This document shows, in pieces, positions 19,138 through 53,454 of a stretch of 64,000 nucleotides of DNA. The stretch is from Candidatus Latescibacterota bacterium (GTDB lineage: Bacteria; Latescibacterota; UBA2968; GCA-2709665). The number at the start of each line of letters is the position of its first letter. Within the stretch, counting starts at the first letter, position 1. The notes under the pieces are model-generated. The model was given only the letters and a program-made list of their open reading frames with translations, was not told the origin of the DNA and did not search any database. The stretch is from the NCBI GenBank assembly GCA_965205485.1, contig OZ242180.1, positions 1,888,001 to 1,952,000 on the forward strand. The letters are read 5' to 3'. Both the position numbers and the translations under genes were made by a program.

Positions 19138-22100
19138 ATGAGGCTGCGGAGGTTTTCAGGACCGGGTCTGGCGTTACTACTGGTTGTCGGCAATGCCGGC
19201 GTCGCGCGCGCGCAAGACGTCGCGGAGCCGCAGGGAATCATGATTCGCGTGGACAGGCCCGCCGACGGCGCGTGGGCCGGCATCGGAGGCAGGATCGAGA
19301 TTCGCGTCCTGGCCTACGACGGTATCCTCGACGAGGGTTTCCGCGTGTCCGTCGCGGATGCAAGCGTCCGCGACGAGGACGTCGGCGTCACCAACGGCGG
19401 CGCCGTCGCGCGAGGTTTCGTCTATTACAATATATATATACCCGGTCCGGTCAACCTGCCGCCCGGTGTCGCATTCGGCGACAGCGGGTCGTCGGGCATC
19501 GACACGTTCCGCGTATCCATAACCGTCTCGCCGCAGGCTGAGCTGTTTCAATCCGAAGACGGCCGCTCGGCCAAAGTCGTGGTCGACCTGGACGCGGGCG
19601 TCGACGGCGGCGAGTTGAACAACCTGATGACGAAGTGGAAGATCACCCCGGCTTCCACGGGCTTCGGGGCCGGCAGGGTTGGCGACGGGGTCCGGTTCGG
19701 CATCGATGCCAATCGCCCGGTCCACGCCGACGCGTTCGATTCCTTCTCCGTCGAAACGGACGCCCTGAATCCCGATACCACGCAGGCGGGCCTGATCACG
19801 CGCGTCCGGTTCAGTATCGGAGACGAGATTGCCGTCAGGATCGGTCTGAACACGGCCGGCATTCTGCGTGCAGGAGCAAGCCGCATCCTGGCGGGCGTTG
19901 TGGAGACGGACTCCGCCTTTTCCACGGCGCCGGTTTCCTTCGAGTTCTGGGGAGACAGGCTGTATCGCGCGGAACTCCGGGGCTCGAAGCGGATCGAGGA
20001 GGGCGATTTCACCGATAACCGGCGGGTGCGGGTGGAAGCCTACCTCGTCGATGCCGCCGGAAACCTGGGCGGCGCCTCGATGGATGCCCAGACGGCGTCT
20101 CCCGTCAGCGCCGGCCACGGACTCCCTCTCGTTTTCGATCCCGATGGCGTGGAGTGGATCGCGGACGGGTCCCCGCCCCGGATTGCGATCGTCCACCCCC
20201 ATCCTGACAGCCTGGAAGACCGGATCTCGGCGGCCGTCACGCAGACGCTGCCGGACCTCAAGCGCCTGCCGTGGGAGACCGCCGGCGTCCGGGCCGGCCG
20301 CTGGCTGAACCCCCTCGAGTTCAGGCTCAGCGAAGTTCCGGACTCCATCCGGATCACCCACGGCGACAGCGCGTACGGCGTCGGCAGCGGCGCTGAGGAT
20401 AACCCCGGCACGTTCGACGTGGACGAAGATATGGCCCCCACCGGGAGCGATTCCACGGCCCGGCTCGGTCTCCCGTGGAAATACGACGTTGCGGGCGGCG
20501 TGCGGAACAACCTGAAGATCCAGGTCTGGGACAGCCTGGGAAACACGTCCTCGGTAACCCTGCCTGGCATCTGGTACGACGAGAAGGCGCCGGTGATCGG
20601 CAATCTGTTCCCCTCCGAAGCCGCCGCGCCCAAAGACCCGGAGAACCTGGACGAGCCCACCATCAACCTGGCCAGCAAGGACCCGGTCTTCGCCATCGAC
20701 GAGGAATTGGACTCCCTGTCCGTCCGTTACCTGGAGACCGGCGGCGCCACGGCCGTCGTGCAGAGCTTCGGCCCGGGAAACCACCGGCTGGAGATCATCG
20801 GCGAACTGGTGAACTGGCCGGTGGACAACACGGGTTTCTTCGACCGGAACCGGTACGAACTGCAGATCCTGGCGGTCGACCTCGCCGGCAACGCCAGCGT
20901 GACCGGCGGCGGCACGTTCATGTTCTCCCGTGGCTTCCTGAATCCCAATGCGGACGCGTTCAGGCTTGCCGCCCTGGCGGATCGGGCCGTCGTCGTCGCG
21001 GGCCGGGACTATCCGATCCGGATCACCGTACTGGACACGATGCTCACCCGGATCGAGGGCGCGGACGTTCTGGCCGCAACGTATCACGCGCCGTCCGTGC
21101 TGGCCGTGGTGGTCCCCGGTGACCAGTCCGCCGCGCTCGAAGGCGTAAGCTTCGGCGGGCAGGGCGTCAGCCCGGCGCCCTCCTTCCCCCTTCCCGCGGA
21201 CCTGGCTGCCGCGGGTCGGGTCGCCCGGGCCGCTATCATGGACGGCCAGGGGTGGCACGCGGGCCGGCGGGACGTCGCGGTGAGGTCCGCCCGCCCGATC
21301 GCCGGCGCCATGGTGATGGCGGCCGAGTACGCGATCGACCCCGCCACCGGCGCACAAACCCTCCGCATCAGCGGCCGGCTGGACGCGGCGCTGGACGTGG
21401 AGGTCGCCGAGTTCTCCAGTTTCGCGGTCACGGCCCGGGAGGGTGACGTGCCGGCCGTCGCCGTCGACGGCGCCTTTACGGTCAACGTGCTGCCCGCCGA
21501 CGCATTCGGCAACGCGAGCATGAAAATCGACAACACCGTCGGATCCGAGACGTACGGGTCGGTGGCGGTCCGCTTCAGTTCCAGCCACGCCGCGGTGAAA
21601 CTGCCCTCGGGCGTGCAGACGGTCCCGGCCGGCGGCGCGGATTTCGGCGCGATGGCTGCCGATATGGCCGGCAGCGCGACCATCGCCGTGCGCACGGTAA
21701 ACCGGGACTTCGTCACCGGGTCGGGCGCCGACGCCGTGACGGGCGCGCTCACGGGGAGCGTGACAGTGGGGTTCGCGCCGGAGGGCCGGTCCGTCTCCGC
21801 TCCCGGCGCGCCCGCCTCCATCGCGGTTGAAGATTGGCGAGGCCCGGACGGCCAGGGCGACCAGGGCGGCTGGGTGCTGATCAGCTTCCCTGAAGCGGCG
21901 CGGCGCGAAGGCGTGATTCGCTATCGGATCGAGCGGGAGATCGAGACGACCCTCGAGGGGTACGATGAGGAAGGCAACGAAATCCACGGCGAAACGCCCG
22001 TGAAGCAGTGGCTGCACTGGGCGAGCATCGGACCGGGCGCGGACCGTGGCGGCGAGTCGGACGGAGGCGTGCGGCGCGCCGTGATCCCCGCGCTGGACAA

Positions 22101-23025
22101 CGCGGCCACCCGCTGGGGCGTCAGGTCCGTGGTGAGCGACGGCGGGTCCCCTGCGGCCGTGGCCGGCAAGCGCGTCTTTACCAGGGAGCGCATACGCCAA
22201 ACGCTGCGGCTGCTCGGCATCTCGCCCGTACCGGTCCTGACCGACGAGGAACGGATGGCTCGGATCAACGCGCCGGAGGACTTCGTCCGGTCCGTCATCG
22301 GCGATCGGAAGGACCTGGTCTTCGCGCCCGCCAGTCCCGGCGCGGGCGCGCCGTGGGCCAGCGCTTCCGTACCCGACAACATCCGGACCGCGACCGGAGG
22401 CGGCCTGCGGGTCTCCGCCCGCACGGTCACGGAAGGGCCGGTTGGCGCCGTGGACAACGTCGCCCCGGCCGCGGTTACCGGCGTCACGGCCCGGCGCACG
22501 GGCGCGCTGCGGTGGACGGCTTCCGCCGATGACCGGATCGTGGACTTTATTCCGTTTCGCGGCTACACCATTCCGGTTCCGGGCGTGAAGGGCTACAGGG
22601 TGATGCGCGGCCCGTCTGCCGGCGACCTCGAGCAGATCGCCGCGCTGCCCCCTGGATCCACGCAGTTCACGGACGAAGATCTGCCCGACGGCGCGACGTC
22701 CCTGGTCTACCGGATCGACGCGTATGACGACAACAACGTGACGCCGGGTCAGTTGGTCCCCGTGGACGACCTCTCGGTACGCGCGAGGTTCCTCGACGCC
22801 GCCGGCGATCCGGTCTACCTGATCGTGCTGCCGTCCCAGGGAGGCAGCCCGGCGTTCGACTTCGAGGACCTGATCGCCTTCGCGGCAGCGTTCGGGACGC
22901 GGATGGGCGATGTGAATTACAACCCGCAAGCTGACGTGAACGACGACGGGGCCGTGGACTTTTCAGACTTCGTCACCGCGTCGTCCTCGTTCGGCCGCAC
23001 GGCGGTCGAGCCTGCGGGCGATTGA
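19138..23025 (+). CDS. Large secreted multi-Ig/FnIII-like surface protein with C-terminal dockerin-like (duplicated EF-hand) domain
   Basis: GGAGG RBS and signal peptide ending ARA-Q; beta-rich repeats ending AVDLAGN/WDSLGN; C-terminal DVNDDGAVDFSDF; collinear paralog of 25558-30518. Confidence 0.75.
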   Translation: MRLRRFSGPGLALLLVVGNAGVARAQDVAEPQGIMIRVDRPADGAWAGIGGRIEIRVLAYDGILDEGFRVSVADASVRDEDVGVTNGGAVARGFVYYNIYIPGPVNLPPGVAFGDSGSSGIDTFRVSITVSPQAELFQSEDGRSAKVVVDLDAGVDGGELNNLMTKWKITPASTGFGAGRVGDGVRFGIDANRPVHADAFDSFSVETDALNPDTTQAGLITRVRFSIGDEIAVRIGLNTAGILRAGASRILAGVVETDSAFSTAPVSFEFWGDRLYRAELRGSKRIEEGDFTDNRRVRVEAYLVDAAGNLGGASMDAQTASPVSAGHGLPLVFDPDGVEWIADGSPPRIAIVHPHPDSLEDRISAAVTQTLPDLKRLPWETAGVRAGRWLNPLEFRLSEVPDSIRITHGDSAYGVGSGAEDNPGTFDVDEDMAPTGSDSTARLGLPWKYDVAGGVRNNLKIQVWDSLGNTSSVTLPGIWYDEKAPVIGNLFPSEAAAPKDPENLDEPTINLASKDPVFAIDEELDSLSVRYLETGGATAVVQSFGPGNHRLEIIGELVNWPVDNTGFFDRNRYELQILAVDLAGNASVTGGGTFMFSRGFLNPNADAFRLAALADRAVVVAGRDYPIRITVLDTMLTRIEGADVLAATYHAPSVLAVVVPGDQSAALEGVSFGGQGVSPAPSFPLPADLAAAGRVARAAIMDGQGWHAGRRDVAVRSARPIAGAMVMAAEYAIDPATGAQTLRISGRLDAALDVEVAEFSSFAVTAREGDVPAVAVDGAFTVNVLPADAFGNASMKIDNTVGSETYGSVAVRFSSSHAAVKLPSGVQTVPAGGADFGAMAADMAGSATIAVRTVNRDFVTGSGADAVTGALTGSVTVGFAPEGRSVSAPGAPASIAVEDWRGPDGQGDQGGWVLISFPEAARREGVIRYRIEREIETTLEGYDEEGNEIHGETPVKQWLHWASIGPGADRGGESDGGVRRAVIPALDNAATRWGVRSVVSDGGSPAAVAGKRVFTRERIRQTLRLLGISPVPVLTDEERMARINAPEDFVRSVIGDRKDLVFAPASPGAGAPWASASVPDNIRTATGGGLRVSARTVTEGPVGAVDNVAPAAVTGVTARRTGALRWTASADDRIVDFIPFRGYTIPVPGVKGYRVMRGPSAGDLEQIAALPPGSTQFTDEDLPDGATSLVYRIDAYDDNNVTPGQLVPVDDLSVRARFLDAAGDPVYLIVLPSQGGSPAFDFEDLIAFAAAFGTRMGDVNYNPQADVNDDGAVDFSDFVTASSSFGRTAVEPAGD

Positions 23026-23046
23026 CGTAGCCCGAACTTCCCCCGG

Positions 23047-23310: not shown

Positions 23311-23493
23311 TGAGAGGCACGTCGAGGCTTCTTTGTCCCCCCGGTCCCTTCTGCGTCTTTTGTGCTTCTTGTGGCCGATTCGACTGTTGTCTATTTTCGA
23401 ATTGAGGTTAATGACTTCATTCGCGCCATTCGTAGTTGTGGTGTTGCCTCAATGCATTTTTTCACGTAAATTCGTAGTTAAGGTGTCGCCTGG

Positions 23494-25557: not shown

Positions 25558-28500
25558 ATGCAGTTAAAAACGGTTTCAAGCATTGGTTTGGCGTTTCTGC
25601 TGGTTTTCGGAGTGGTTGGCGTGGCCTCGGCCCAGTTGAGGTGGCCGCCACGCAGGGTGTTTTCATTCGCGTCGACAAACCGGCCGCCAACAAGTGGGCC
25701 GCGATCGGCGACACGATTGAGTTCGGATCCTGTGCTATGACGGCGTCTCGACGACGGCTTCCGGTTTCGGTGGTCGACTCTCCAGCTCGCTGACGCCGAC
25801 GGCGACGGCGACACGTTATACTTTCACGATCGGTGACACTGCCGACCCAAACGGATGTTTTTACAACGCGGATGAACGCGAAATCGCTGGCATCACACGA
25901 ACCCCGCGGGTGATATTACGGTTACGAAGGGGTTGGGCTCTGGTGTCGATACGTTCACGGTTCAATTACCGTGGAACAGGATGACGCGATCGAGAGCGAC
26001 AGCAACCACGCGTTGAAGGTTGTCGTGGACCGGATGCCACCAACAATCCGGGTGGCGCGCTGAACAACCTGATGACCGAACAAGAAGATCACGCCCGCCA
26101 CGGCCGGCTTCGGCGCCAGCCGCGTGGGTGACGGAAGCTGTTCGGCATCGACAGCGTTCGCCCGCTTCATGAAAATGTGTTTACGGAAATCGATCTGGAC
26201 CTGAACAGGTTGGAACCGTCCTGGTCGATACGTCGGCCTCCGGGCTCACCGGCACCGGCCAGCAACCCTACGTCCGGGAGATCCAGATTACAACCGACCA
26301 GGTGTTCAGAGCGGTGCTGAATCTGAATACCGCGATTCCTGAGCGCCAGGGCGGACAGGATCGAAGTCGGTCTCGTTCCCGCCGACTCGATTGCGCGCTA
26401 TGATGCCGAAACAACGGCCGACCCTCCTGGCCTTGGTTTGGAACTGGAACCGGCGAGGGCGAAAGCTTTCGAGGAGGACGCGCGGGTAAAGGTCACGCTC
26501 CGCGGGGACAGGCTGTACAGCCCGAATCCGAGCGTTGAGGATAAGATTGACGCGGGGCAGTTCAAGGATAACGAGCGGCTTGAGCTCTTCGCCTATCTCG
26601 TGGACGTCGCCGGTAACGTCGGCGGTACGTGCCACAGGGCCCTCCGCTGCCAATTGGAGAACCCTCCACGGCGGTGCCGACTCGCTCCTGGCTGATATAG
26701 CAACTCTGACAGCTGTGGCCGCGGCTGGAGCCAACACAAATGTACCGATTATCGGCGACGCGACCGCGCCCAAGATTACGATCAATATCCCAATCCGGAC
26801 AGTATTGCGGCCGGATCGGAGAATCATAAACCTCTGATCACCGCGGCGATCACGCAGTCGCTTGACGGCATTTATACGCAGTTGCCGGGTGAGCCCGCGG
26901 TACAGACCAACCGTCGGCTGAGACCGCTTGAGTTCAAGCTCAGCGAAGGGGTGAGCAAGATCACGATCAAACACGCCGACAGTACGCTGACGCTCAATCC
27001 CATCCCTGACGATCCCGCTACAACGGGCGACGACGAATCCGCGGACCCCACGGGCGGCGACGGCGTGGCCACGGTGGACTTCCTCAACGATACCCCCGAT
27101 ACGGCCCCATGGTGGACGGTAACTGAGGAAACCGGCGCCGTGGCGGGTATCGATAAAGGGAAGTACGAAGCCAAGGGTGGAACTGCCGGGGATATCATCA
27201 TCACCGCCTGGGACAGCCTGGGCAACAAGACCGAGTACAAGGGCCTGACGGGCATCACGCTCGACGGAAACACCCCGGGGATCACCAATCTGTTCCCCTC
27301 GGACGAAGCGGCGCCCAAGGACGCGGACAACGAGGACGCGCCCACCATAGACCCGGTCACCAAGAACCCGGCCTTCATCATCAACGAAGAGCTGGACTCG
27401 CTGTCCATTCGTTATCATGAGTCGGGCGGCGGAGCGACCATCGTGCAGGCCTACGGGCCGGGCAACGCCAGGCTGGAGACGGTGGGCAGTCTGGTCTCCT
27501 GGCCGGTGAACGATACCACCTTCATCGATCGCCAGAGGTACGAGTCTGGAGGTGCTGGCGATCGACCTCGCGGGCAACGCCAGCGTGACGAAGGGCGGTA
27601 CGCTCACGTTCAAGGATATGTTTACGAATCCGGACGCCGATATGTTCAAGATTGCGGCGACGCCGGACGAGAAGCAGGTTGCCGGCGTGGACGTCTCGCT
27701 GGCGATGACGGTCCTCGATACAACGCTGACGCGTGTCGAAAAGGAAAAGGATAGCGCCGCCGGCGACGTTCTGGCGGTAACCTATCACACGCCGTCGGCG
27801 GTGGCCGTGCTCGTTTCCGGCGATCAGGCCGAAGCGCTCGAAGGCGTGACGTTCAGCGGCACCGGCGTATCTCCGGCGCCCTCGTTCGCGATTCCCGCCG
27901 ACCTGGCCGCGCTGGGCATGGTGGCGAAGGCCGCCATTCTGGACGGCGACGGCTGGCACGCGGGACAGCGGACCGTCAAGTTCAAGTCCACGAAGCCGCT
28001 GACCGGAATTACCGTGATGGCGGCGGAAGGCTCGCATCGATCCCGGCACCGGCGCCTACACGCTGCGTATCAACGGTCAGGCCGCCAAGGCGATCAACAT
28101 CGAGGTCGCGGAATTCTCGAAGTTCAACGTAACGGCGATCGAGGGTGAGATCTCGACGGACAACGTGGCCGGGTCCTTTTCGGTCCACGTGGCGCCCGCC
28201 GACGCCTTCGGCAACCCCAGTCTGAAGATTGAGAATGCTGCGGGTGCGAAGGTGTATACGTCGGTAGCCTTCACCTTCGCTTCCAGTAACGCCGCCGTAT
28301 CGGTGCCCTCCGGCCAGCAGATGGTGACCAGCACGGACGGGGCCACGTACGGCGCGCTGGCCAGCGACGCCAGCGGCAGCGCGACGATCAGCGTCAGGAG
28401 TGTTGAAACCTATACGACCGGCGCTGCACAGGGTACCGATGACGACAAGACGGCGCCGTCACCGGTGCCGTGACCGTCAACATCGTATCCACTGACGGAG

Positions 28501-30518
28501 ACGGCCCGGATCCGGGCGCGCCTGCTGCGCCAGCCAATATCGTGGTGCAGGACTACAAGGGCGCGGACGGTGAAGGCGACCAGGGCGGCGTTGTCGTGAT
28601 CAGCTTCCCGAATTCGTCGCAGCACGACGCCGTGTCCGCCTACCAGATCTCCAGGGAGATCGACTCCACCACGGGCGTTGACGATGAAGGCAACGTGGTT
28701 GAGCTCGAAGAGCCCGTGAAGAAGTGGGTGGCCTGGACCAGCGTCAGCTTCTCGGCCGACGCCGGCGACGATATGGGCGACGCGGAAGGCGACATGCAGA
28801 CCGTGGTCGTTCCTGCCATCGACAACGTGGCCACGAACTGGGGCGTTACGGCGGTGACCGCCGCCGGTGAATCCGACATGACCACGGCCAGCAAGCGCGT
28901 GTTCACGAAGGAGAGCATCCGGCAGACGCTGCAGTTGCTGGGTATGCCCGAGGCGGAGCTTCTGACGGACGAGGAGCTGAGCAATCAGTTCAACGCGCCT
29001 GAAGACTACGTCAAGTCGCTGATCGGCGACCAGAAGAACGTCATCTTCGCGCCGGTGAATCCCGACGTGAGCGCGCTGGTGGGCAATGCGGCGGTTCCGG
29101 CGAACATCCGGACGGGCCACGCGGGCAGTTTCCTTTCGTCCGCCCGCACGGTCACGGAGGAGCCGGTGGCAGCCGTTGACGACATCGCTCCCGCCGCGGT
29201 TACCGATGCCAGTGGTACAGGCGCCGGCGGTGTGATTCTGACCTGGACGGCTTCGGCCAGCGAGGGCATTGTCGACTACATTCCGTATCGTAGCGACCCC
29301 AACGGTGATGGCAAATACATGATTCCAATCATGGGTGTGAAGGGCTACACGGTGATGCGAGGCGCGTCTGCCGACGCACTTGAGTCGGCTGGCACCCTGG
29401 CTCCCGGATCCACCCGGTTCACCGACGACAACCTGCCTGACGGCGCCACCTCGCTGGTCTATCGCATCGACGCGTTCGACGACAATAACGTGGCGATGAG
29501 CGACCTGATCACGGTCGAGAACATTTCGGTCCGTGTGAGCTTCGTGGACGCCAACGGCGATCCCGTCTACCTGATGGTGCTGCCGGCGCAAGGCGGTAAC
29601 CTCGAGGTCGACTTTGAAGACATCCTCGCCTTCGGTGCAGCCTTCGGCAGCAAGAAGGGCGATGCCAACTACAACCCGCAGGCCGACGTGAACGACGACG
29701 GCAGCGTGGACTTTGCGGACCTGGCCACGGCGGCAGCGACATTCGGCAAGACGGCCGTGCTGCCTTCCGGAAGCAAGCTGGCGGTGGTCCCGCAGCGTCC
29801 TGGCGTGAACGCCGATACGGAGATGACGCTCGAGTTGACCGGCGACAAGGTGCTGGTTGGCGAGACGATCACGTTGACGGTGTCCATGGCCAACGCCAAA
29901 GCGTTGAACGGCTACGGTCTGGAACTGGTGTATGACGCTGACAAGTTCGAATTCGTGAGCGCCGTACCCGCTGAGAACGATCTGCTGAAGTCCGATGGTG
30001 GTGAGACGCCGCTGTTCAAGAACTGGCCTGAAGAGGGTCGGGTCTCGGTGGTGAACCTCATTACCGAGTCGGGAACGGTGAGCGGCGAGGGCGCCCTGGT
30101 GACCTTCACGTTCAAGGTTCTGAGAGAGTTCGAGGACAACGCCCGCTTCGAGATCGCACAGGGCGTGGTGTTCGACGGGAATCAGCTGCAGAACCCGGTG
30201 GTGACGCTTGGCGCGCTGGACGTGCAGAGCACACCCACGGAGTTCGCGCTGCATCAGAACTATCCGAACCCGTTCAACCCGCAAACCAACATTCCGTATG
30301 ACCTGGCTGAAGGCGGCGACGTGGTCCTCCGGATCTACAACCTGCTGGGTCAGGAAGTTCGGACGCTGGTGCGCGAGCGCCAGGCGCCCGGACGGTATAC
30401 GGTGCAGTGGAGCGGTATGGACGACCGCGGAGTATCGGTTTCGAGTGGAATTTACTTCTATCAGGTCTCGGTTGCCGGTAAGTTCCAGGATGCCAAGCGG
30501 TTGATGTTGCTCAAGTAG
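25558..30518 (+). CDS. Very large secreted scaffold: Ig/FnIII-like repeats + dockerin-like + cohesin + T9SS type-A (FlgD-Ig) tail; 5' part broken by many 1-bp frameshifts
   Basis: AAGGAGG RBS and signal peptide MQLKT..ASAQ; ORF fragments collinear with 19138-23025; intact 28470-30518 carries DVNDDGSVDFAD, a cohesin-like GETITLTVSM..GYGLELVYDADKFEFV..GALVTFTFKVL segment and QNYPNPFNP..GIYFY..MLLK. Confidence 0.75.
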
Positions 30519-30527
30519 TCAGGAAGG

Positions 30528-30627: not shown

Positions 30628-32094
30628 ATGTATAGAGTTAAACCGATTCTGAGCTTCGTTGCGGCTGCCGCTTTTCTTGTGGTTGTCGCTGCCGGAAGCG
30701 CCGATGCGGGCGCCCTGGCGGGCAAGAAGCTGCTGGTCGATACCGTGTTCAATATGGTTGAAGACGACGCCGACAAGGTGAACGAGGGCGTGAATACCAT
30801 CGCGCCGTCGATGACCATGGAAGGCGACACCATCAAGGTGGAGCTGTTCATCGAAGACGGTGGTGGCGTCAGCACGCTGGGTGGCGGCGTCAAGTTCGCC
30901 GACAGCAATATGGATATGATGTTTGACGAGAGCTGGAAGATCGTCGCGGTCGACGGGATCGGTACCATTCCGAACCCGCAGTCCCTGACGGCCGACCAGT
31001 TTTCGCTTCTGCAATTCCCCGCGGCTCCGCTGCCGGATAACGGGTATTTCGCCACGGTGAAGATTGTGGCGCTTTCCAACATCGAGGAAGGCGCATCCTT
31101 CTACGCAAAAACCGCGGTAATAACGACGGACGAAGTGGATTCTCTGGACGTGTCCGAAGCCGTCGTGACCGTCGAGGCCCCCAAGGGTCCGACCATCATG
31201 GCCGATCCGATGATGGGCGGGAATATGTTCCAGATCCCGGCGGACGGCAGCGTTGAGGTGACCCTTTCGCTGGACAACCTCCCGGACGACGCGAGCATCT
31301 CCTGGGCAATCCTGGGCATGGAGGGCGACGGTTCGTTGGCCGTGCTGGATACGGATGGGATGATGCTCGAACCCGACGACATGATGATGGTCACTGCTGA
31401 CATGATCGTGCTGAAGGTGTCGGGCGGAAGCCTGCAGGTGACCGGGAAGGCCATCGTGAACGGCGAGGACACCGCGCCGATAACGATAACGTTCACCCAG
31501 TTGAACCCGGCCGAACTGGCCTCGTTCGACGGCGCAATGCAGACGGACCGCGTGGTGCTGAACTGGTCCACGGTCTCGCAGACGAACAATGCGGGCTGGC
31601 GGGTCATGCGCAGCGTCGACGGCGAGACCTTCGAGGCCGTCGGTAATTTCGTTCAGGGCGCGGGAACCGCCGATGCGCTGATGAACTACAGCTTTGAAGA
31701 CAAGAACCTGCCGGGCGTGGAGAAGGTTTACTACAGGCTGGAGCAGGTGGACCTGGACGGCTCGATTTCGCAGTCGAACGTCATCGAGGTGCTTCTGGGC
31801 GCCCGGATGCCGTTGCCCACGGAGTTCGCGGTCAACGTCTATCCGAACCCGTTCAACCCCAGCACCACGATTTCGTATGAACTCCCCGAATCCGCTCCGG
31901 TTTCGGTGGTCATCTACGACGTGCTGGGCCAGCAGGTGCGTCACCTGGTTTCGCAGTTCAACTCGGCCGGTCGCTATTCGGTCCAGTGGGACGCGCGCGA
32001 TAACCAGGGCAGGGGCGTTGCAAGCGGCGTTTACATCGCCAAGGTCGACGCCGGAACCACCACGCTGTCCCAGAAGATGCTGCTGCTCAAGTAA
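30628..32094 (+). CDS. Secreted acidic Met-rich protein with T9SS type-A C-terminal domain, possible N-terminal cohesin-like fold
   Basis: Signal peptide; PAELASF..VVLNWST..YYRLEQVDLDG Ig module; YPNPFNPSTTISY..ASGVY..KMLLLK. Confidence 0.8.
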   Translation: MYRVKPILSFVAAAAFLVVVAAGSADAGALAGKKLLVDTVFNMVEDDADKVNEGVNTIAPSMTMEGDTIKVELFIEDGGGVSTLGGGVKFADSNMDMMFDESWKIVAVDGIGTIPNPQSLTADQFSLLQFPAAPLPDNGYFATVKIVALSNIEEGASFYAKTAVITTDEVDSLDVSEAVVTVEAPKGPTIMADPMMGGNMFQIPADGSVEVTLSLDNLPDDASISWAILGMEGDGSLAVLDTDGMMLEPDDMMMVTADMIVLKVSGGSLQVTGKAIVNGEDTAPITITFTQLNPAELASFDGAMQTDRVVLNWSTVSQTNNAGWRVMRSVDGETFEAVGNFVQGAGTADALMNYSFEDKNLPGVEKVYYRLEQVDLDGSISQSNVIEVLLGARMPLPTEFAVNVYPNPFNPSTTISYELPESAPVSVVIYDVLGQQVRHLVSQFNSAGRYSVQWDARDNQGRGVASGVYIAKVDAGTTTLSQKMLLLK

Positions 32095-32156: not shown

Positions 32157-32164
32157 AATTCTCA

Positions 32165-43301: not shown

Positions 43302-44579
43302 CTAATTCCCGACGGGTTGCCCGAACGCTTTCGAAAAAATCAGAAAGTCAGTAAATCCGACGGTTCCGTCACCGTCCAGATCGAACCTGGAATCGAAGGC
43401 CTCATCGTCGGAAGACGCGCCGAACGCATCTGCAAACAGGATGAAATCCGGAAACCCAATCGTTCCATCACGATCGAAGTCCGGGGAAGGGGGCGGCATT
43501 AAGGTTATTGGTCCGAATCGTCTGGGACCCAGCGAGCGGTTGCCCCGTCTCCACAGATACACATCCAGCGAACCATCGCCAGGGCGGTGCCCGTGCTCGG
43601 GTGAAAACTCGATATTTGCGATGAATTCACCTTGGGTCACAGGTGAGCTGAAGTCGACCCGGCCTCGGAAATTCTGACGCGATTTGTGTACAAAGAACTC
43701 AAAGTCGATTTGACGCACGGAAGGATCGGACACGGTGCCGGTAACTCGAACGCTTCGTCCAAGCGCATAGACGACTGGCATCGGCGACGTAAGTTCGATT
43801 TCCTCGAAGTAGTCGAAAGGAAAGAACACTGCACCCTCGCCTTCTGTTACGTTAATGGGGCTGAATTCGTCCCGACGTATTTGAACAGTGTGCCCGGAGC
43901 GATACCTTTCCAGTGCCAGTTTGTAAACACCTGCCGTATTGTGCGGCAGGAATATCGGCTTGTTTAGTCGACCGTCGATCACCGGGGCTATGTGCCACAT
44001 CGGAAAATCACCGTTCCTATTGTAGAAGATCAGCTTGACCATGTATAGTGATGGATCGAATACCGTTGCGGAAACACGAACAATCTGACCGGTCGTCATT
44101 TCAACGGGGATCGGTGAGTCCAGTTCAATATCGGAAAAATAATCCACGGGAATCGGCGATATCTCTGGGGCTTGTTGAACAATGAAGGGACGAAATGCGC
44201 CTGCTGAGGAGTATGGCGGCTTCCCCCGTATGAGTCTCAACTGCAAGACATAGTCATCTGCCTGTTCGTGGGAAAAGAACAACGTATGTTTGAATCCCTG
44301 GTCGTGTACCGGAACCATGTACCAATACGCCGACCCACATTGGTCTATTTCTTCACTGTCGTTGTAAAGGAATGCAAACTGGATCTCGGATATCAGAGGA
44401 TCGGATACCGTACCGGAAAAGTGAATCGGCGTGTACGACAGAAATGGGCCGGACACGGACGCATCCAGCGAGATCCCTGCGAAGAAATCTCTTGATATCG
44501 TCGTATTGGCTTGACCGTCCGCGGCAAGCGGCTTTAGACCGAGTGAGATCAGAAGGAACGCAACTGCCAGAGTTCTCAT
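43302..44579 (-). CDS. Secreted protein, three ~110-aa repeats + dockerin-like domain
   Basis: Signal peptide MRTLAVAF; repeats D(F/Y)F..I.L.SP.P; DFDRDGTIGFPDF..DLDGDGTVGFTDF. Confidence 0.85.
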   Translation of the reverse strand: MRTLAVAFLLISLGLKPLAADGQANTTISRDFFAGISLDASVSGPFLSYTPIHFSGTVSDPLISEIQFAFLYNDSEEIDQCGSAYWYMVPVHDQGFKHTLFFSHEQADDYVLQLRLIRGKPPYSSAGAFRPFIVQQAPEISPIPVDYFSDIELDSPIPVEMTTGQIVRVSATVFDPSLYMVKLIFYNRNGDFPMWHIAPVIDGRLNKPIFLPHNTAGVYKLALERYRSGHTVQIRRDEFSPINVTEGEGAVFFPFDYFEEIELTSPMPVVYALGRSVRVTGTVSDPSVRQIDFEFFVHKSRQNFRGRVDFSSPVTQGEFIANIEFSPEHGHRPGDGSLDVYLWRRGNRSLGPRRFGPITLMPPPSPDFDRDGTIGFPDFILFADAFGASSDDEAFDSRFDLDGDGTVGFTDFLIFSKAFGQPVGN

Positions 44580-44882: not shown

Positions 44883-46883
44883 TCACTGTCGTCCGTTCGT
44901 ACCGAAAGCCTCCCCGAATATCAGAAAGTCCGAGAATCCCACCTCCCCGTCCAGGTCCAGATCGAACCAGGGTTCGAAGTCGTCGTCGGCCCACGACCTG
45001 CCGAAAGCGCGCGCAAAGAGGATGAAATCCGGGAACCCGACCGTCCCGTCACGGTCGAAGTCCGGAGACGGGCGTTCCCCCCGCATTACGGCCATCGGGC
45101 TGTATGTCGTTGCAAAATGCCTGTTTACGCCAATGCGAAGCGTGTATGTTCCTGCCTCATCCGGATAGAAAAAGAGCCGTTTGTTGAACCGACCCTCGGT
45201 AACGGGCGCACGGAATCGGATCTCCCTCAAGGCGTTTTCAAAATAGAAATCAACCACACCGGACGGCGCCGCAGCGGATGACGTTCCACTTATGGATATG
45301 GCCTGCCCTGTCCTGAACTGAAGCGGCAGCGGCGGGTCGAAGGCAGCGCGGGCCCGATAATTCGCGGGTATCGCGATACGTGGTTGGTAGTTTATGGGTA
45401 TGGGTATGAGTTGTGCCCGAAATGTACCATCCGGATCGGTCTGTATGGTTATCGTGGTCCGCCTTCGGTTTCCAGTCAATCGAATGTACATGGGTGAAAG
45501 TTGATGCAAAAGCCCTTTGACCGTAACCGTGTGCGCATCGCTCCGAAAGACAGGATCGAACCCGCCGCCGTCGTAGATCTGGTACCCGCCTTCCGGCCAA
45601 ATTACAGGCTGATTGGGGAGGGGAAATGCACGAGCGTGCGAAATGTCGTCTGCGAGCGGCGCCGAAGTATAGTTGAGCTTTGTGTTGAGGCGCAATCCAC
45701 TCAGGAACAGCCTCGCAGCGTGCCTGTCGAAAATATCGCCAAATCGACGGCCCGTCGCGGCCTCTATATTTGCAATTCCCGTCTTGTCGGTCTGCACGAG
45801 CCGTGACACGATTCCTGAGCCAAACTCCTCAACAAGGCTATGCACGAAAAGATAAAGGGCCCCACGACTTCTCCGTACACAATTCCCGTTCGTAACCAAT
45901 GGACCCTGGCCCGTAAAGTCGAGGAAGAAATCGGCATTCGATTCATTGAAGAAGTTCTCGCCGATGAGGTCTTCGCAGAAGTGTGATAACCCCTCATTGA
46001 GCCAAAGAACTTCCGGTTGTCCGTTGCGAACGAGCACGCGCTGATTGAAGTTGATGAGATGTTGGAATTCGTGTGCAAGCACGGCATGGACTTTCCGTGG
46101 ATCGGTGTCCGGGTCTATATAGAACATATCGGAAAGGTTACCATTGCCTCCCTGACTCACGGATAGCAACGACGGTGCATGGAAGAATCCGGCCGCGCCG
46201 AAAATGGATTCATCCGGGTTAACGAGATTGGTATAAAGAAAGTGGATCTTGCCATCGCTATCCACGTCTGAAGCCGGTCCGAATGCGGACGTGACAAGGG
46301 GATATGTCTTCTCGCTGAAGCGGTCGACCTGTACCTGGAGCGAGTCTGCGTTCATCCGGCTGACGTCCGCCACGTCCACGTAGGCATTAGCCCGCTCGCC
46401 GGTCGCTACGAGAGACGCCGTAATTGTGGTTTTCGGGACATTTCCGAATGGGGGAAACACGAATTGGCGGGTGCTGCCTATCTGTTGCGGGACGGTCTTC
46501 GCCGCGTGAGGGCGATAGCCGCCGGATTCCTGCAGGCGGCCCGCAAGTTCCCGTTCCCGTGCTCGCAGCATGCTTTCGAAACTGACACGGTCGGCAACGG
46601 GCGCTTGCGGACTGGCCTCCGGTCCGCCATCCAGAACGGGATTCGAAGTGCCGAAAGCGGCGGTCACGGAGTAGCCCAACGGACTTTGGAGACCGAAACT
46701 CTTGTTTTCCAAATGGGTATCAATGGAATAGAGGATCAACTGGTAGTCGCATTTCGAGAAATCAAGGGTCAGCGTCGTTGAATTCTCAGGGAGATCGACC
46801 GGTATCGGCTCGCCGATTTCCTGGGCGGGAAGCTTCTGAATGCCAGCCAATAACAGCAGGAACAAGCAGCTGAGAAGCCTCAT
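44883..46883 (-). CDS. Secreted M30-like zinc metallopeptidase + one repeat + dockerin-like domain
   Basis: Signal peptide; DVDSDGKI; LAHEFQHLI..WLNEGLSH; duplicated DxDxDG tail. Confidence 0.85.
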   Translation of the reverse strand: MRLLSCLFLLLLAGIQKLPAQEIGEPIPVDLPENSTTLTLDFSKCDYQLILYSIDTHLENKSFGLQSPLGYSVTAAFGTSNPVLDGGPEASPQAPVADRVSFESMLRARERELAGRLQESGGYRPHAAKTVPQQIGSTRQFVFPPFGNVPKTTITASLVATGERANAYVDVADVSRMNADSLQVQVDRFSEKTYPLVTSAFGPASDVDSDGKIHFLYTNLVNPDESIFGAAGFFHAPSLLSVSQGGNGNLSDMFYIDPDTDPRKVHAVLAHEFQHLINFNQRVLVRNGQPEVLWLNEGLSHFCEDLIGENFFNESNADFFLDFTGQGPLVTNGNCVRRSRGALYLFVHSLVEEFGSGIVSRLVQTDKTGIANIEAATGRRFGDIFDRHAARLFLSGLRLNTKLNYTSAPLADDISHARAFPLPNQPVIWPEGGYQIYDGGGFDPVFRSDAHTVTVKGLLHQLSPMYIRLTGNRRRTTITIQTDPDGTFRAQLIPIPINYQPRIAIPANYRARAAFDPPLPLQFRTGQAISISGTSSAAAPSGVVDFYFENALREIRFRAPVTEGRFNKRLFFYPDEAGTYTLRIGVNRHFATTYSPMAVMRGERPSPDFDRDGTVGFPDFILFARAFGRSWADDDFEPWFDLDLDGEVGFSDFLIFGEAFGTNGRQ

Positions 46884-47612: not shown

Positions 47613-48875
47613 TCACTGCCCAAATGCTTTGGCGAAGATCAAGAAATCGCCGAAATCAACGGTCCCATCGCCATTCAGATCGTACCTGAAAATCCATGCA
47701 GCTGAAGGCCTCCCGAACGCCCCCGCAAATAACCTGAAATCGGCGAGATCCACCGTGCCATTGCCATCAAAGTCAGGGGAGGGTAGTATGGTAATCGGCC
47801 GGAATGTTCTGGGGCCCCGGGAACGATTGCCTCGGCTATGCAAGAAGACATCAAGCCAATAGTCCCCGGGATGCAGCTGGGACGGGAAATCGCCCAGGAT
47901 GGAAAATTGCTTGTAGCTGATGGCTGCCTTGAAGCTTGCGTCTGTGGTCCCGGGTGATGGACCCAGATATCCACTGGGAAACTGGAACTGGAACTGGAAT
48001 TCGATATCGGAGACCGAAGGATCGGATACGGCGCCGGCAATCCGCAGCTTCTGGCCCGGCGAAAATACAACCGGCATACGCGAGGTAATTATGACTCCCT
48101 CAAAGTAGTCATAAGGGAGGTACGCGGTCCCCGCGCCTCTCATGACATTGACGGGTCTGAATACATCCTGTGCGGCGGCACCTTGTCGGCTGCCATGATA
48201 TCTCCATAACTCCAGGTCGTATACGCCTGCTGTTTTGTGGGCAAAAAAGATCGTCTTGTTGAATTTACCGTCTATCACTGGCGCGCGGTGTACCAGCCGA
48301 AAGTCGATATTCTTCTGAAAGAAGGTCAACGCGATCATCGATAGAGTTGGGTCGAATACAGTACCGGAAACTCGAACAGCCTGCCCTGTCGTGATTTCAA
48401 CCGGGATTGGTGACGCCAATTCAATGTCAGGAAAGAAGCCAGTGGGAATCGGCGTGGGTTTCGTATTTTCTTGTATTAAGATCGAGTGGACGACACCCGC
48501 CGAAGAGTACGGCTGTTTACCCCGTTTTGTAAGCAGTTCCAGATGGTAGCCATCCGCCTGTTCGTTTGAAAAGAACAACGTATGGCTGAATCTGCGTTCG
48601 CGCACGGGGACACTGTAAAAATTAAACAAATTACAGTCATCTATGTCTTCAGCTTCATTGAAGTAGACGTGAAACATGACCCGGGAAATCGAGGGATCGG
48701 ACACCGTGCCGGAAAAATGAATTGGCGTGTACGAAAAAAACGGACCGCTTACCGGCTTGTCAAGCTTAATGCCTGTGAAATAATCGGTTGAAATCTCGAT
48801 GTTGGACCGGCTGTCTGCATATAGCGGATGAAAGCACAATAATGAAAGAAGGAATGCGCTTGAAAAGGACCTCAT
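47613..48875 (-). CDS. Secreted protein, three ~110-aa repeats + dockerin-like domain (paralog of 43302-44579)
   Basis: Collinear similarity; DFDGNGTVDLADF..DLNGDGTVDFGDF. Confidence 0.85.
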   Translation of the reverse strand: MRSFSSAFLLSLLCFHPLYADSRSNIEISTDYFTGIKLDKPVSGPFFSYTPIHFSGTVSDPSISRVMFHVYFNEAEDIDDCNLFNFYSVPVRERRFSHTLFFSNEQADGYHLELLTKRGKQPYSSAGVVHSILIQENTKPTPIPTGFFPDIELASPIPVEITTGQAVRVSGTVFDPTLSMIALTFFQKNIDFRLVHRAPVIDGKFNKTIFFAHKTAGVYDLELWRYHGSRQGAAAQDVFRPVNVMRGAGTAYLPYDYFEGVIITSRMPVVFSPGQKLRIAGAVSDPSVSDIEFQFQFQFPSGYLGPSPGTTDASFKAAISYKQFSILGDFPSQLHPGDYWLDVFLHSRGNRSRGPRTFRPITILPSPDFDGNGTVDLADFRLFAGAFGRPSAAWIFRYDLNGDGTVDFGDFLIFAKAFGQ

Positions 48876-48969: not shown

Positions 48970-50964
48970 TCATCGTCCGAAAGCCTCCGTGAAAATCAGA
49001 TAGTCCGAGAATCCCACCTCGCCGTCGAGGTCCAGATCGAACCGGGATTCCCAATCCTCGTCGTCCCTGGAATTGCCGAACGCGCGCGCAAAGAGGATGA
49101 AATCCGGGAACCCGACCATCCCGTCGCGGTCAAAGTCCGGGGAAGGGGGTTCCCTGTGTACCACGGCCATTGGGTAAAAGACCGCTGATCCGTGCCATCC
49201 CGCCACCGTGATGGAGAATGAATATCTCCCGACGTCATTGGGATGAAAGAAGAGTGTCTTATTGAACTTACCATTTGCAATTGGCGTTTGTAAGCGGATT
49301 ACCCGGAGACCGCTCTCCAGCCAGAACTCGACGTTTCCGGTCAATGACGCATTGGAGATTCTTCCGCTGACAGGAATGGCCTCGCCAACCCGGAACTGCA
49401 CGGGCAACGGCGTGTCAAAGGCTACACGTGGCCAATAATTCCCGGATATCGAGATTTGAGGCTGATAGTTCACGGGGACGGGAACGAGTTGTGCCCGGAA
49501 TTCACCTTTTGGATCTGTACGAATGGTAATCTTCGTCTCATTTCGGTTGCCAATCAGGCGTAGATACACAGGCGCGAGCTGATATATTTCCCCTTTGACC
49601 GTGACGGATTGCGTCTCATCCGGGGAGACCGGTATAAACCTCCTGTTTCCGCCAAATTGGTGCCCGCCACCTGGCCACATCAATGCTTGATGGGGGAGCG
49701 GGAATGTCCGTGCGCCGGAAACGTCGTCTGCAAGAGGCGCTTCAGTAAAGCTTAGGTCGGCGTTGATGCCCAGTCCGCTCAAGAATAGCCTCGCAACGTG
49801 CTTCTCGAAAATTTCCCCAAATTGACGGCCCGCCGCAGCTTCTATGTTTTCCAATCCAATCTCGTCGCTCTGCACCAGCCGCGCCAGAATTCCTGACCCA
49901 GACTCCTCAACGAGGCTGCGCACGAAGAGATAGGCGGCACCCCGACTCATCTGGCCCATGCGCGACGTCGTGACCAACGGTCCGCCGCTGGTATTTGTCA
50001 AAAAGAGATCGACATACCTGTCATTGTGCGCGCGGTTCTCGCCTATAAGGTCTTCACAGAAATGCGATAACCCCTCATTGAGCCAAAGAACTTCCGGTTG
50101 TCCGTTGCGAATGAGCACGCGCTGATTGAAGCTGATGAGATGTTGAAATTCGTGTGCAAGCAAGCCGTGCATTCTCCATGGATCCGTGTCCGGGTCGATA
50201 TAAAACATATCGGATAGATTACCGTCGCCTCCCTGGTTCACCGAAAGCAACGACGGGGCATGGAAGAACGCCGCGGCGCCGAATAAGGAATTATCCGGGT
50301 TTACGCGATTGGTGTACACAAAGTGGATCTTGCCATCGTTATCCACGTCCGAAGGCGGTCCGATTGCGGATGTAACAATGGGATATGTCGTCTCGCTGAA
50401 GCGTTCGACCTGCACTTTGATCGAGTCATTACTCATCCGGCCGACGTCGAGCAGGTCCACGTAGGCATTTGCCCGCTGGCTGGTCGCCACAAGAAGTGCA
50501 GAAATCGTGACACTCGCTCTGTCTTCAAACGAAGGAAAGACAAACTTGCGGATTCTGCCTGATTCCTGCGGGACGATCTTCGCCGCGCCCGGGCGATAGC
50601 CACCGGATTCCTGCAGGCGCCTCGCGAGTTCCCGTTCCCGTGTACGTATCGAGCTTTCAAGGCTGACACGGTCGGAAAGGGGCGCTTGTGGACTGGCCTC
50701 CAATCCGCCATCCAAAACGGGATTCGAAGTGCCGAAAGCGGCGGTCACGGAGTAACCCAACGGACTTTTGAGTCCGAAACTACTGTCTTCCAAATGGGTA
50801 TCGATGGAATAGAGGATCAACTCGTAGTCGCATTTTGAGAAATCAAGGGTGAGCGTCGTTGAAGACTCAGCGAGATCGACCGGTATCGGCTGGCCGATTT
50901 CCTGGGCGGGAAGCTTCTGAATGTCGGCCAACAACAGGATGAGCAAGGAGACGAGAATCCTCAT
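48970..50964 (-). CDS. Secreted M30-like zinc metallopeptidase + one repeat + dockerin-like domain (paralog of 44883-46883)
   Basis: LAHEFQHLI..WLNEGLSH; duplicated DxDxDG tail. Confidence 0.85.
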   Translation of the reverse strand: MRILVSLLILLLADIQKLPAQEIGQPIPVDLAESSTTLTLDFSKCDYELILYSIDTHLEDSSFGLKSPLGYSVTAAFGTSNPVLDGGLEASPQAPLSDRVSLESSIRTRERELARRLQESGGYRPGAAKIVPQESGRIRKFVFPSFEDRASVTISALLVATSQRANAYVDLLDVGRMSNDSIKVQVERFSETTYPIVTSAIGPPSDVDNDGKIHFVYTNRVNPDNSLFGAAAFFHAPSLLSVNQGGDGNLSDMFYIDPDTDPWRMHGLLAHEFQHLISFNQRVLIRNGQPEVLWLNEGLSHFCEDLIGENRAHNDRYVDLFLTNTSGGPLVTTSRMGQMSRGAAYLFVRSLVEESGSGILARLVQSDEIGLENIEAAAGRQFGEIFEKHVARLFLSGLGINADLSFTEAPLADDVSGARTFPLPHQALMWPGGGHQFGGNRRFIPVSPDETQSVTVKGEIYQLAPVYLRLIGNRNETKITIRTDPKGEFRAQLVPVPVNYQPQISISGNYWPRVAFDTPLPVQFRVGEAIPVSGRISNASLTGNVEFWLESGLRVIRLQTPIANGKFNKTLFFHPNDVGRYSFSITVAGWHGSAVFYPMAVVHREPPSPDFDRDGMVGFPDFILFARAFGNSRDDEDWESRFDLDLDGEVGFSDYLIFTEAFGR

Positions 50965-51354: not shown

Positions 51355-53454
51355 CTAATCTCCAACCGATTGCCCAAACGCCTTTGCGAATATCAGAAAG
51401 TCCGAAAATCCGACGGTTCCATCACCGTCCAGATCGTACCTTGCGTCGTAACCGGCATCCCCATGACTGAATCCGAATTCTGTCGCAAACCTCACAAAGT
51501 CGGTGAAGTCCACCGTCCCATTATCGTCGAAGTCAGGATCCGGCTTAAGAGGCGTGACAAAGGGTGACACATCCCAGATTAAAACAGTACCGTCCCATCC
51601 GCGGGAAGCCATTATGGGCTTATAGAATGAAAACGCCACTGAACGGATCCCGCCCGGATGCCTCAAGGTTGCGATCTCCTTACGGGCATCGACGTCCCAC
51701 AGCCTGACGGTTTCATCCCATGAACCGGATGCCAGGATATTTGTGTCGGGCGAGTAGGCTAACGTATAGACCCCTCTCTCATGACCTTCGAGCGTGCCGA
51801 TCTCTATCCCTCGCGCCGAATTCCACAATCTGATCATGCTTTCGTCGAGTTCCGCCGAAACGAGGGTGTTCCCGTCGTGCGAGAACACCACGGATTCAAC
51901 GGGATTCAGATGCCACAAGGTGGCGATTTCCTTTCCTGCGGCCACGTCCCACATCTTGACCGTGGTGTCAAACGAGCCCGAAGCCAGGATGGTCCCGTCG
52001 GGCGAAAACGCCAGCGTCTGAATTCTCTCCGCATGCCCTTTCAGCGATAAGACCTCCCGTCGATTCGCTACGTCCCATAGTCTGACCATGAATTTTTCAC
52101 CATTATCGCGACTCCCCCCCGAGGCCAGGAAGGAGCCATCGGGGGAAAAGGCTATTGGATCGACGCCGCGGAGCCACTCTTCGTTAAGGACGGCGATCTC
52201 ATTTCCGGTCGCCAGGTCCCAGATTGTGATGTATCCATCGATGGTGGTTGCCAGGGTGTTTCCGTCGGGCGAGAAACCGACTGAAAAGACCCCTTCCCTA
52301 TCTCTCGCTATCTCCGAGGGTTCTGACTCGTTCGACAGATCCCATCGCAGGATCCTGCCAGAACCTGTTGTAGCGATTAACCTCGTTCCATCGGGCGCAA
52401 TTGCCATCGAAGTCGTATGATGAAAGTCGCCGAGAATGGTGGCGCTTCCCGACTCCAGATCATGTAAGACGACCCCATCGTAGCTCGAAGAAACAAGAAG
52501 ATTCGGTTCGGCCGGGGAATATGTCAACGAGTTCACCGATCCTCCATGCAAACCATCGCCAGCGATACGACCTCCCGTATCGACTTCCCAGCGTATCACC
52601 ATTTTATAGGATCCAACCGTCAGCGTACTGCCATCGGGGGAGAACGCCACCGACCACACCCGGTGGTACCGGCGCACATTCAGCGTGGCAATCTGTTCTG
52701 CGGTCGCTACGTTCCACAATCTTGCGGTATCGTCCCGCGAACCGGACGCCAACATGGCGCCGTCCGGGGAAAAGGCCAGCGTCTCGACGTTCTCTCTGTG
52801 CCCCTCCAACGTGGCGATTTCCATCCGTGCAGCCACGTCCCATAGCTTGATGTTTTGATCGCCAGCGGTCGCCAGCTTACTTCCGTCGGGCGAGAACGCT
52901 AACGCTCTGACGCCTTCAGTATGCCCTTCCAATACGGCCACCACGGTTCGGTTGCCCGGATCCCATAACTGTACTGTGCCGTCATTCGACCCTGAGGCCA
53001 GGATAGTTCCATCGGGCGAAAACACTGCGATGGGAAAATAAAGCGGGTCGTGGCGGAGGGTCCCGATGCGTCTGCCGGTATTGACCTGCCATAGCGCAAT
53101 GGTGTGATTGTGCAACCCGGTGGCGAGCGTCGCTCCGTCAGGTGAAAATGCAACCGAAGTGAGTTGCGTTTCCGTGGGCAAGAGCGTTACATAACGGTTA
53201 GTCGCCACCTCGTAAATCCAAACGCCGATGGAACTCGCAACGGCCAGATATCTCCCATCACTCGAAAAGTCCACGGCGTGATTGCCGTAAGCACTGATAA
53301 ACCCCTTACCCAGGCGGGCAATCGCTCCTTCCGGCAAGTGCCATGTTCGGGGATGACCAGGCAGACTGGCCGGAACAAGCTCACCTGCTCCCTGGCCGAA
53401 TAGCGGTTGAAGGAAAATGAGGACCAGCAAAAAGGCTTGGATAGGGTATTTCAT
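51355..53454 (-). CDS. Secreted WD40-repeat beta-propeller protein with dockerin-like domain
   Basis: GGAGGGAGG RBS, signal peptide, LPEGAIARLGKG, repeated GH..V..LAFSPDG..LASGS.D..LWD, DFDDNGTVDFTDF..DLDGDGTVGFSDF. Confidence 0.9.
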   Translation of the reverse strand: MKYPIQAFLLVLIFLQPLFGQGAGELVPASLPGHPRTWHLPEGAIARLGKGFISAYGNHAVDFSSDGRYLAVASSIGVWIYEVATNRYVTLLPTETQLTSVAFSPDGATLATGLHNHTIALWQVNTGRRIGTLRHDPLYFPIAVFSPDGTILASGSNDGTVQLWDPGNRTVVAVLEGHTEGVRALAFSPDGSKLATAGDQNIKLWDVAARMEIATLEGHRENVETLAFSPDGAMLASGSRDDTARLWNVATAEQIATLNVRRYHRVWSVAFSPDGSTLTVGSYKMVIRWEVDTGGRIAGDGLHGGSVNSLTYSPAEPNLLVSSSYDGVVLHDLESGSATILGDFHHTTSMAIAPDGTRLIATTGSGRILRWDLSNESEPSEIARDREGVFSVGFSPDGNTLATTIDGYITIWDLATGNEIAVLNEEWLRGVDPIAFSPDGSFLASGGSRDNGEKFMVRLWDVANRREVLSLKGHAERIQTLAFSPDGTILASGSFDTTVKMWDVAAGKEIATLWHLNPVESVVFSHDGNTLVSAELDESMIRLWNSARGIEIGTLEGHERGVYTLAYSPDTNILASGSWDETVRLWDVDARKEIATLRHPGGIRSVAFSFYKPIMASRGWDGTVLIWDVSPFVTPLKPDPDFDDNGTVDFTDFVRFATEFGFSHGDAGYDARYDLDGDGTVGFSDFLIFAKAFGQSVGD

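Follow-up and report, generated by a model that had tools for sequence, protein, structure and literature searches.

Candidate single-cohesin anchors with type IX secretion tails and a genome-wide set of dockerin-tagged secreted proteins in a Latescibacterota bacterium

In a 64,000-nucleotide stretch of the genome of a Candidatus Latescibacterota bacterium (contig OZ242180.1, positions 1,888,001 to 1,952,000; hereafter, the window), positions 19138 to 53454 encode secreted proteins with dockerin modules, cohesin domains and type IX secretion system (T9SS) C-terminal sorting domains (CTDs). A first-pass annotation of this DNA had described the region as one unit, in which a surface scaffold displays zinc peptidases, repeat-domain proteins and a WD40 propeller. 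We favor a different reading, to which we assign a probability of roughly 65%: surface anchors with a single cohesin and a T9SS tail would each bind a single client out of some 90 secreted proteins tagged with dockerins, anchors and clients together forming a genome-wide kit of which two pieces lie in the window. Judged from their domains, the clients are predicted to comprise zinc peptidases, repeat proteins of the WD40, leucine-rich repeat (LRR) and NHL types, and a few glycan enzymes. The system appears to be real, but neither a cellulosome nor a single scaffold; it is best described as a putative T9SS-tailed, monovalent cohesin-dockerin display on the scale of a cellulosome in a diderm bacterium. 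What can be read directly from the sequence are the modules and their counts, a near-exclusive split between dockerins and T9SS tails, the linkage of small cohesin genes to dockerin genes, a conserved trio of anchor genes and a variable cassette of client genes. The features of the region are as follows (positions in the window).

19138-23025, forward strand: giant secreted protein with a dockerin-like module (22816-23013) at its end; paralogous to the 25558 gene, with neither cohesin nor T9SS tail.
25558-30518, forward strand: giant gene with dockerin, cohesin and CTD in that order (Doc-Coh-CTD); about eight frame changes in the assembly, longest open piece 28470-30518.
29565-29765, forward strand: dockerin-like module with a degenerate first calcium loop (module profile; two helices in the model).
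29823-30185, forward strand: cohesin domain (PF00963, 37.1 bits, cut-off 24.1, E 4.3e-9).
30261-30518, forward strand: T9SS type-A C-terminal sorting domain (PF13860 and TIGR04183 above cut-off).
30628-32094, forward strand: putative second anchor, with signal peptide, divergent cohesin-fold domain (residues 27-183), two immunoglobulin (Ig)-like domains and T9SS tail (AlphaFold2 model; TIGR04183, 45 bits).
40272-42885, reverse strand: zinc peptidase (HExxH), three Ig-like repeats and dockerin; frameshifted near the 5' end.
43302-44579, reverse strand: signal peptide, three Ig-like repeats (a family without a Pfam name) and dockerin.
44883-46883, reverse strand: signal peptide, lugdulysin-like zinc peptidase (HExxH; PDB 7bb8, E 6.6e-15), one repeat and dockerin.
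47613-48875, reverse strand: signal peptide, three Ig-like repeats and dockerin (PF00404, E 5e-4, and PF09136, E 2e-4, each below cut-off).
48970-50964, reverse strand: signal peptide, zinc peptidase (paralogue of 44883) and dockerin.
51355-53454, reverse strand: signal peptide, WD40 propellers (PF00400, E 5e-103) and dockerin.

A dockerin profile built from 90 modules (three short matches of 93 were left out) was compared with the PDB, where its top three matches were cellulosomal dockerin chains, 2y3n_B (E 1.3e-13) followed by 4wi0_B and 4u3s_B (E 5-6e-12), with calmodulin-type proteins ranking lower at E 3e-9 and weaker. This result bears out the earlier proposal that the duplicated module is a dockerin rather than an unrelated EF-hand; the three chains we take to be type II dockerins. 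The module consists of two tandem repeats of about 22 residues, each a calcium loop followed by a helix, and both loops carry Asp at position 12 in 84 of the 90 modules. Recognition position 10 is Phe in 92% of first repeats and 84% of second repeats and, because of this uniformity, the sequences suggest that clients mostly share one specificity and may be interchangeable. Eight such modules had been reported in the window: eight are present and six, those of the clients, have both DxDxDGxVxFxDF loops complete, whereas the first loop is degenerate in the dockerins of the 19138 protein and the 28470 open reading frame (ORF).

The genome holding the window (at C1:1888001-1952000) is a single contig of 5.13 Mb that is 97% complete. 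Its housekeeping proteins fall into 90%-identity clusters with records labeled Ca. Latescibacterota or Gemmatimonadota. A genome-wide count of these domains, one of the checks proposed by the first-pass annotation, yielded 93 dockerin ORFs, with the module C-terminal in 54, N-terminal in 27 and internal in 12, and seven canonical cohesin ORFs, each with a single cohesin. The two sets differ in their tails: all seven cohesin ORFs end in a T9SS tail, as do only two of the 93 dockerin ORFs, namely the 28470 ORF and one paralogue elsewhere. Five of the seven cohesin ORFs consist of a signal peptide, a cohesin and a CTD and nothing more. A dockerin ORF is found within 300 bp of four of these five small genes; the figure is 5.8% for random positions, and none of 15 other CTD genes has such a neighbor. 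By a crude rule, signal peptides were predicted in 74 of 93 dockerin ORFs (control, 497/2323); 25 contain HExxH, one has a possible lipobox and three have a possible membrane segment. A scan of contigs keyed on the CTD returned unrelated CTD proteins and was discarded.

Passengers were identified in a scan of 87 of the 93 dockerin ORFs (59 by NCBIfam only), leaving out five WD40 paralogues and one fragment. Common among them are WD40, LRR, NHL-type propellers, FN3, FG-GAP, peptidases resembling S8, M10 and M60, and FGE-sulfatase domains. Glycan enzymes amount to at least two heparinase II/III proteins and one GH5, a lower bound given the scope of the scan, and plant-wall glycoside hydrolases are not dominant. 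The statement that no glycoside hydrolase is present therefore holds for the scanned proteins of the window and fails for the genome as a whole. Divergent cohesin-dockerin adaptors are also encoded elsewhere, including one with two cohesin-like domains (C1:2691904), while no primary scaffoldin of the cellulosome kind, with multiple tandem cohesins and usually CBM3, was found among the seven canonical cohesin ORFs.

The association between the two modules extends beyond this genome. Within the order, all 41 genomes searched have both modules, with 24-123 dockerins and 2-13 cohesins per genome; across 121 genomes of the phylum, a cohesin is found in 99 of 99 genomes with at least three dockerins and in five of 22 with two or fewer.

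The giant gene at 25558-30518 had been described as one protein with a cohesin-like domain and a T9SS type-A tail. Both domains are in place (29823-30515), but the gene is not a single ORF here: aligned with its intact paralogue (C1:451759-446909), it falls into nine tblastn pieces in three frames. Its counterpart is a single ORF of 1613-1797 aa in nine of nine congeners examined, which were picked from 14 for a long-frame cohesin match (in G001, the large-type cohesin sits in a 300-aa frame). At position 26079, all three non-RNA runs of related samples have a one-base gap in their short-read contigs, and a contig spanning 26373-26982 shows two gaps. This pattern fits long-read consensus error for the minority of breaks resolved in this way. 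An alternative genetic code was rejected, as the open pieces change frame and TAA and TAG stops are also present.

The cohesin family profile, compared with the PDB, returned cohesin-containing chains as all of its 11 best matches. Because it has a single cohesin, the 25558-30518 protein is predicted to be a monovalent anchor or adaptor and not a multi-cohesin scaffoldin. The scanned cohesin proteins have no lamin-tail match; their ends are FlgD/Por_Secre tails. In an AlphaFold2 model of 29178-30515 (pLDDT 74.5, pTM 0.52; other four models, 46-62), which was used for secondary structure only, the dockerin part has helices at residues 146-155 and 179-187. The neighboring giant, 19138, matched no family in Pfam and NCBIfam scans, and is 55% identical to the 28470 ORF over 413 aa.

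The composition of these giants allows for another arrangement, in which Doc-Coh-CTD proteins polymerize head to tail, or close in cis, as a surface layer, and clients use the small cohesin-CTD anchors only. In each such giant, a single dockerin stands about 20 residues from a single cohesin and is unlike the client type; large- and small-type cohesins form separate subfamilies with about 30% identity; and the tandem giant genes are conserved in ten of ten relatives. Set against this, 19138 keeps its dockerin after cohesin loss, as would fit binding in trans to an anchor, and the 29178-30515 model gave no usable contact read-out. We consider such a polymer improbable.

The first-pass annotation recognized only one cohesin-like protein in the window, but 30628-32094 encodes another protein with a cohesin fold. 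Its AlphaFold2 model contains four beta-sandwich domains and, when residues 27-183 were searched with VIA-align, the top match was the cohesin 2vo8 (Z 10.3, rmsd 2.8, 120 residues aligned), with other cohesins at ranks 3, 4, 5, 7 and 8. Foldseek with the entire model placed generic multi-Ig proteins on top and a cohesin at rank 26, and hhalign found no match between 30628 and the canonical cohesin alignment. The protein joins, with a probability of 75%, a divergent cohesin-like family whose members precede a dockerin in about ten proteins of the genome, and this family in turn is linked to known cohesins by its matches to the canonical profile (E 2.6e-4) and to the cohesin of NagJ (E 0.0016). 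An Atlas search provided a lead only (0.88; cohesin in 18% of members). The assignment of 30628 as a cohesin thus follows from its link through the divergent family together with its fold. An orthologue is kept 3' of the giant gene in ten of ten relatives. In one of them (L187, G008:C1:2377001-2397000), the orthologue, a 1177-aa frame, contains the second Ig-like domain seven times, as if the stalk under a cohesin of this type could be extended.

The six genes at 40-53 kb agree with their earlier description as peptidase, repeat and WD40 proteins that have dockerin tails and no T9SS tail. HExxH occurs in three of the six, and 44883, which we take to be an M30-type peptidase, matches lugdulysin, the neutral metalloprotease of Staphylococcus lugdunensis. 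All 28 homologues found for the 43302 protein are unnamed. The signal peptide of 40272 begins near 42885, in another frame.

These genes do not form a unit with the anchors, as had been claimed for 19138-53454. They are opposite in strand to the anchors, separated from them by unrelated genes for a Uma2-family protein, an IS481 transposase, a molybdopterin oxidoreductase and an amidohydrolase, and represent six of the 93 dockerin ORFs. The trio of two giants and 30628 is conserved in ten of ten relatives, whereas the client cassette, which has six dockerin genes here, has 5, 3, 1, 0, 1, 1, 1, 4 and 0 in nine relatives (two of these genes are fragments; G004, whose contig ends before the cassette, is not counted) and is absent from G014 and G029, where the anchors persist. 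The region is therefore made up of a conserved anchor locus and, on the opposite strand, a variable island of client genes.

This arrangement bears on the original proposal, that one surface scaffold at the locus displays several of its six neighbors as a cellulosome-like multi-enzyme complex. The domains on which it rests, cohesin, dockerins and T9SS tail, are indeed present, and adaptors elsewhere, such as C1:2691904, could build small multi-subunit trees. Nevertheless, each window anchor has a single cohesin, leaving no scaffold that carries several subunits; the cassette varies and can be absent where anchors are kept; and 87 other dockerin ORFs would compete for the same sites. The proposal now seems hard to sustain. 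In the monovalent display that we prefer, and by analogy with cellulosomes and the T9SS, anchors would cross the outer membrane via SprA and remain on the surface, clients would bind them one to one in a calcium-dependent manner, and the cohesin-dockerin adaptors would add a second tier.

Dockerins and T9SS tails also replace one another at the ends of related proteins. The 19138 orthologue is Doc-Coh-CTD in six of nine congeners and ends after the dockerin in the other three, as it does here; two members of one passenger family, 42% identical over 335 aa, carry different tags, a CTD in C1:1765366 but a dockerin in C1:1536909; and the N-terminal domain of 30628 is also found in the dockerin-ended proteins P0111, P0112 and P0114. 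On account of these three exchanges, the data fit a role for the dockerin as a stand-in for the CTD, that is, as an indirect address. Separately, six secreted T9SS-tailed proteins (G000:C1:497172-507769 and 1763714-1765366) have a passenger in common with one dockerin-tailed protein; this passenger matches the sensor regions of MctS/CtpM below cut-off, regions that we presume to be Cache-like, and the proteins have no membrane or signaling part.

For proteins without a tail of their own, our preferred guess is that they cross the outer membrane bound to a cohesin-CTD protein. The dockerin would then be a second-hand export tag, with about 90 Sec-exported, tail-less proteins binding a cohesin-CTD carrier in the periplasm and piggybacking through SprA, an idea that we regard as tentative and rather less probable than surface display itself. 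A type II route is unlikely, since a secretin search of the genome found none, the same search being positive in six of 14 controls.

The proposed check for T9SS core genes was partly successful. SprA is present above cut-off, as it is in 120 of the 121 phylum genomes; PorV-family barrels are above cut-off, with seven PorV-like matches in the genome; a PorU-like gene with C25 and CTD is located upstream of a small cohesin-CTD gene, some 3 kb away; and there are about 23 type-A CTD proteins. We also observed repeated three-gene cassettes in which a TonB-receptor-like gene is grouped with genes for a large secreted protein, whose end resembles a degenerate CTD, and for a PorV-family barrel; they lie at L046:842-7425 (G000:C1:530841-537424) and near C1:1053511, 2285483, 2588812 and 3011843, and one is directly upstream of a dockerin/cohesin-CTD cluster.

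The PorV-like barrels and SprA could themselves be the readers of the tag. Under this explanation, the dockerin is a calcium-binding folding or sorting module recognized by a non-cohesin, and cohesin folds are structural Ig-like spacers. The number of PorV-like matches and the presence of SprA across the phylum regardless of dockerins would agree with it, as would the cohesin-fold domains directly before dockerins in about ten proteins, an arrangement like that of the X-module of type II dockerins. A spacer role, however, sits poorly with five genes made of signal peptide, cohesin and CTD only, with the position of these small genes next to dockerin genes and with the way that cohesin tracks dockerin across the phylum. 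We judge this explanation unlikely, though somewhat less so than a scaffold at the locus.

Several observations weigh against the monovalent display. Of the families named for a domain search, PF00963, PF13860 and TIGR04183 were above cut-off, but Dockerin_1 (PF00404) is mostly below its gathering cut-off, with one match in the window (E 5e-4); among 20 other dockerin ORFs scanned with Pfam, four exceed it. The cohesin is only weakly similar in sequence to solved cohesins (best E 3e-4). Clients outnumber cohesins by about ten to one, so many clients may be released or stay periplasmic, and the giant anchor's own dockerin adjoins its cohesin and could occupy it. The phylum genomes in which the modules co-occur are kin and do not count as independent cases, and both profiles become less sensitive the more distant the genome. 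Finally, GldL, GldN and PorP were not found in the genome and GldM reached E 0.0035 only, in searches whose controls included no T9SS-positive genome, and the PorU-like protein scores 313.6 against an NCBIfam PorU cut-off of 420. The T9SS here is therefore either non-canonical or too divergent to detect.

Cohesin-dockerin systems with peptidases and with CTDs have already been proposed in print. In the text covered of PMC8542988, a cellulosome-like complex is predicted for Ca. Stygibacter (Cloacimonadota), likewise a Gram-negative lineage, with dockerin-bearing peptidases and glycoside hydrolases and a cohesin protein whose conserved CTD is proposed for surface attachment. That complex centers on one multi-cohesin scaffoldin of 3,755 aa with tandem cohesins and carbohydrate-binding modules, and four enzyme types are named, whereas here we find monovalent cohesin-CTD proteins and about 90 clients, mostly repeat proteins and zinc peptidases. 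The hypothetical planctosome of freshwater Planctomycetes (Nemodlikiaceae; PMC6461901) is closer in plan, being non-cellulolytic and having a single-cohesin anchor, an adaptor with dockerin and cohesin, and zinc-peptidase clients; it differs in its proposed anchoring by a lamin-tail protein that has P-domains and a cohesin, where we find a T9SS tail, and in its few components, with no large set of repeat-protein clients in the text covered.

Among clostridial and ruminococcal scaffoldins, SdbA, OlpA and ScaE are examples of single-cohesin anchoring or monovalent adaptor types, and the dockerins closest to ours are, by our assumption above, type II. Anchoring and monovalent adaptor scaffoldin classes are defined in PMC11557425, the covered part of which does not mention Latescibacter; as here, they combine one cohesin with a surface sorting module, or a dockerin with a single cohesin. 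Here, by comparison, the cell is diderm, a T9SS-type tail replaces SLH or LPXTG, no multi-cohesin primary scaffoldin was found and the 87 of 93 dockerin ORFs scanned include one GH5. In Clostridium perfringens, non-cellulosomal cohesin-dockerin pairs link host-directed enzymes. Their cohesins (NagJ/GH84C and GH33; PDB 2ozn, 2vo8) give both cohesin subfamilies here their best matches in sequence and fold, but belong, as enzyme modules, to a Gram-positive pathogen, have few partners and lack a T9SS tail. Relative to the Bacteroidota T9SS (SprA, PorV, PorU, GldKLMN), the likeness lies in SprA, the PorV family, the PorU-like C25 protein and the type-A CTD proteins, and the difference in GldL, GldN and PorP, which were not detected, in the weak match to GldM and in the fact that most secreted-looking clients lack a CTD of their own.

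At the level of titles and abstracts, no publication was found that treats this system in Latescibacterota or describes T9SS piggybacking, although cohesins or dockerins of Latescibacteria may already have been described. Eukaryote-like proteins of sponge Latescibacterota are listed in PMC12993501, in whose main text, as covered, the words secretion, dockerin and cohesin do not occur; the main text of PMC4454575 lacks the terms dockerin, cohesin and cellulosome; and giant dockerin proteins of Omnitrophota appear in the part covered of 10.1101/2023.11.21.568195.

The organism is probably a sponge-associated member of the Latescibacterota, a habitat that we treat as a lead and not a result: runs with a small share of this DNA are mostly sponge metagenomes, and one sponge metatranscriptome (run X8) has near-identical contigs over part of the window, including the cohesin region, which are no proof of transcription. 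Codon bias was dropped as an expression proxy after the control rplI fell at the 18th percentile. An Rfam scan of the window had a tRNA as its sole match.

Other features of the window are recorded here. On the forward strand, 55034-63104 is a UBact-proteasome operon, a known system, with an ARC-type ATPase, two Pup-ligase-family genes, proteasome beta and alpha subunits, and UBact itself at 59643-59834 (NF033388, 77 bits, cut-off 35). A 300-aa protein without a Pfam or NCBIfam family (54105-55007, forward) lies directly 5' of the ARC ATPase in nine of nine relatives with coverage. The IS481-type transposase (35152-36288, forward), located between the anchor genes and the client cassette, was not seen at the loci of ten relatives. 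The molybdopterin oxidoreductase (38021-39082, forward), which we take to be MsrP-like, has a Tat signal peptide followed by an extended poly-Glu stretch. Similar intergenic blocks (for example 16300-17900 and 57050-57900) recur several times, seen as recurring spurious translations, and are possibly a repeat family.

Sponge symbionts are considered to act on their host through eukaryote-like repeat proteins. A dockerin tag shared by peptidase genes and by genes for WD40, LRR and NHL repeats, together with T9SS-tailed cohesins across the order, provides a concrete mechanism, one open to in vitro tests with small recombinant domains. If binding alone holds true, the result would be a cellulosome-scale cohesin-dockerin network in a diderm bacterium, which is useful and foreshadowed in print. 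If piggyback export is also true, it would extend the roles of T9SS-type translocons by a hitchhiker mode and offer a modular surface-display tag for Gram-negative cells, and sponge symbionts would gain a general means of exporting proteases and eukaryote-like proteins and of displaying them, in a lineage without a detectable secretin or a recognizable GldLMN motor.

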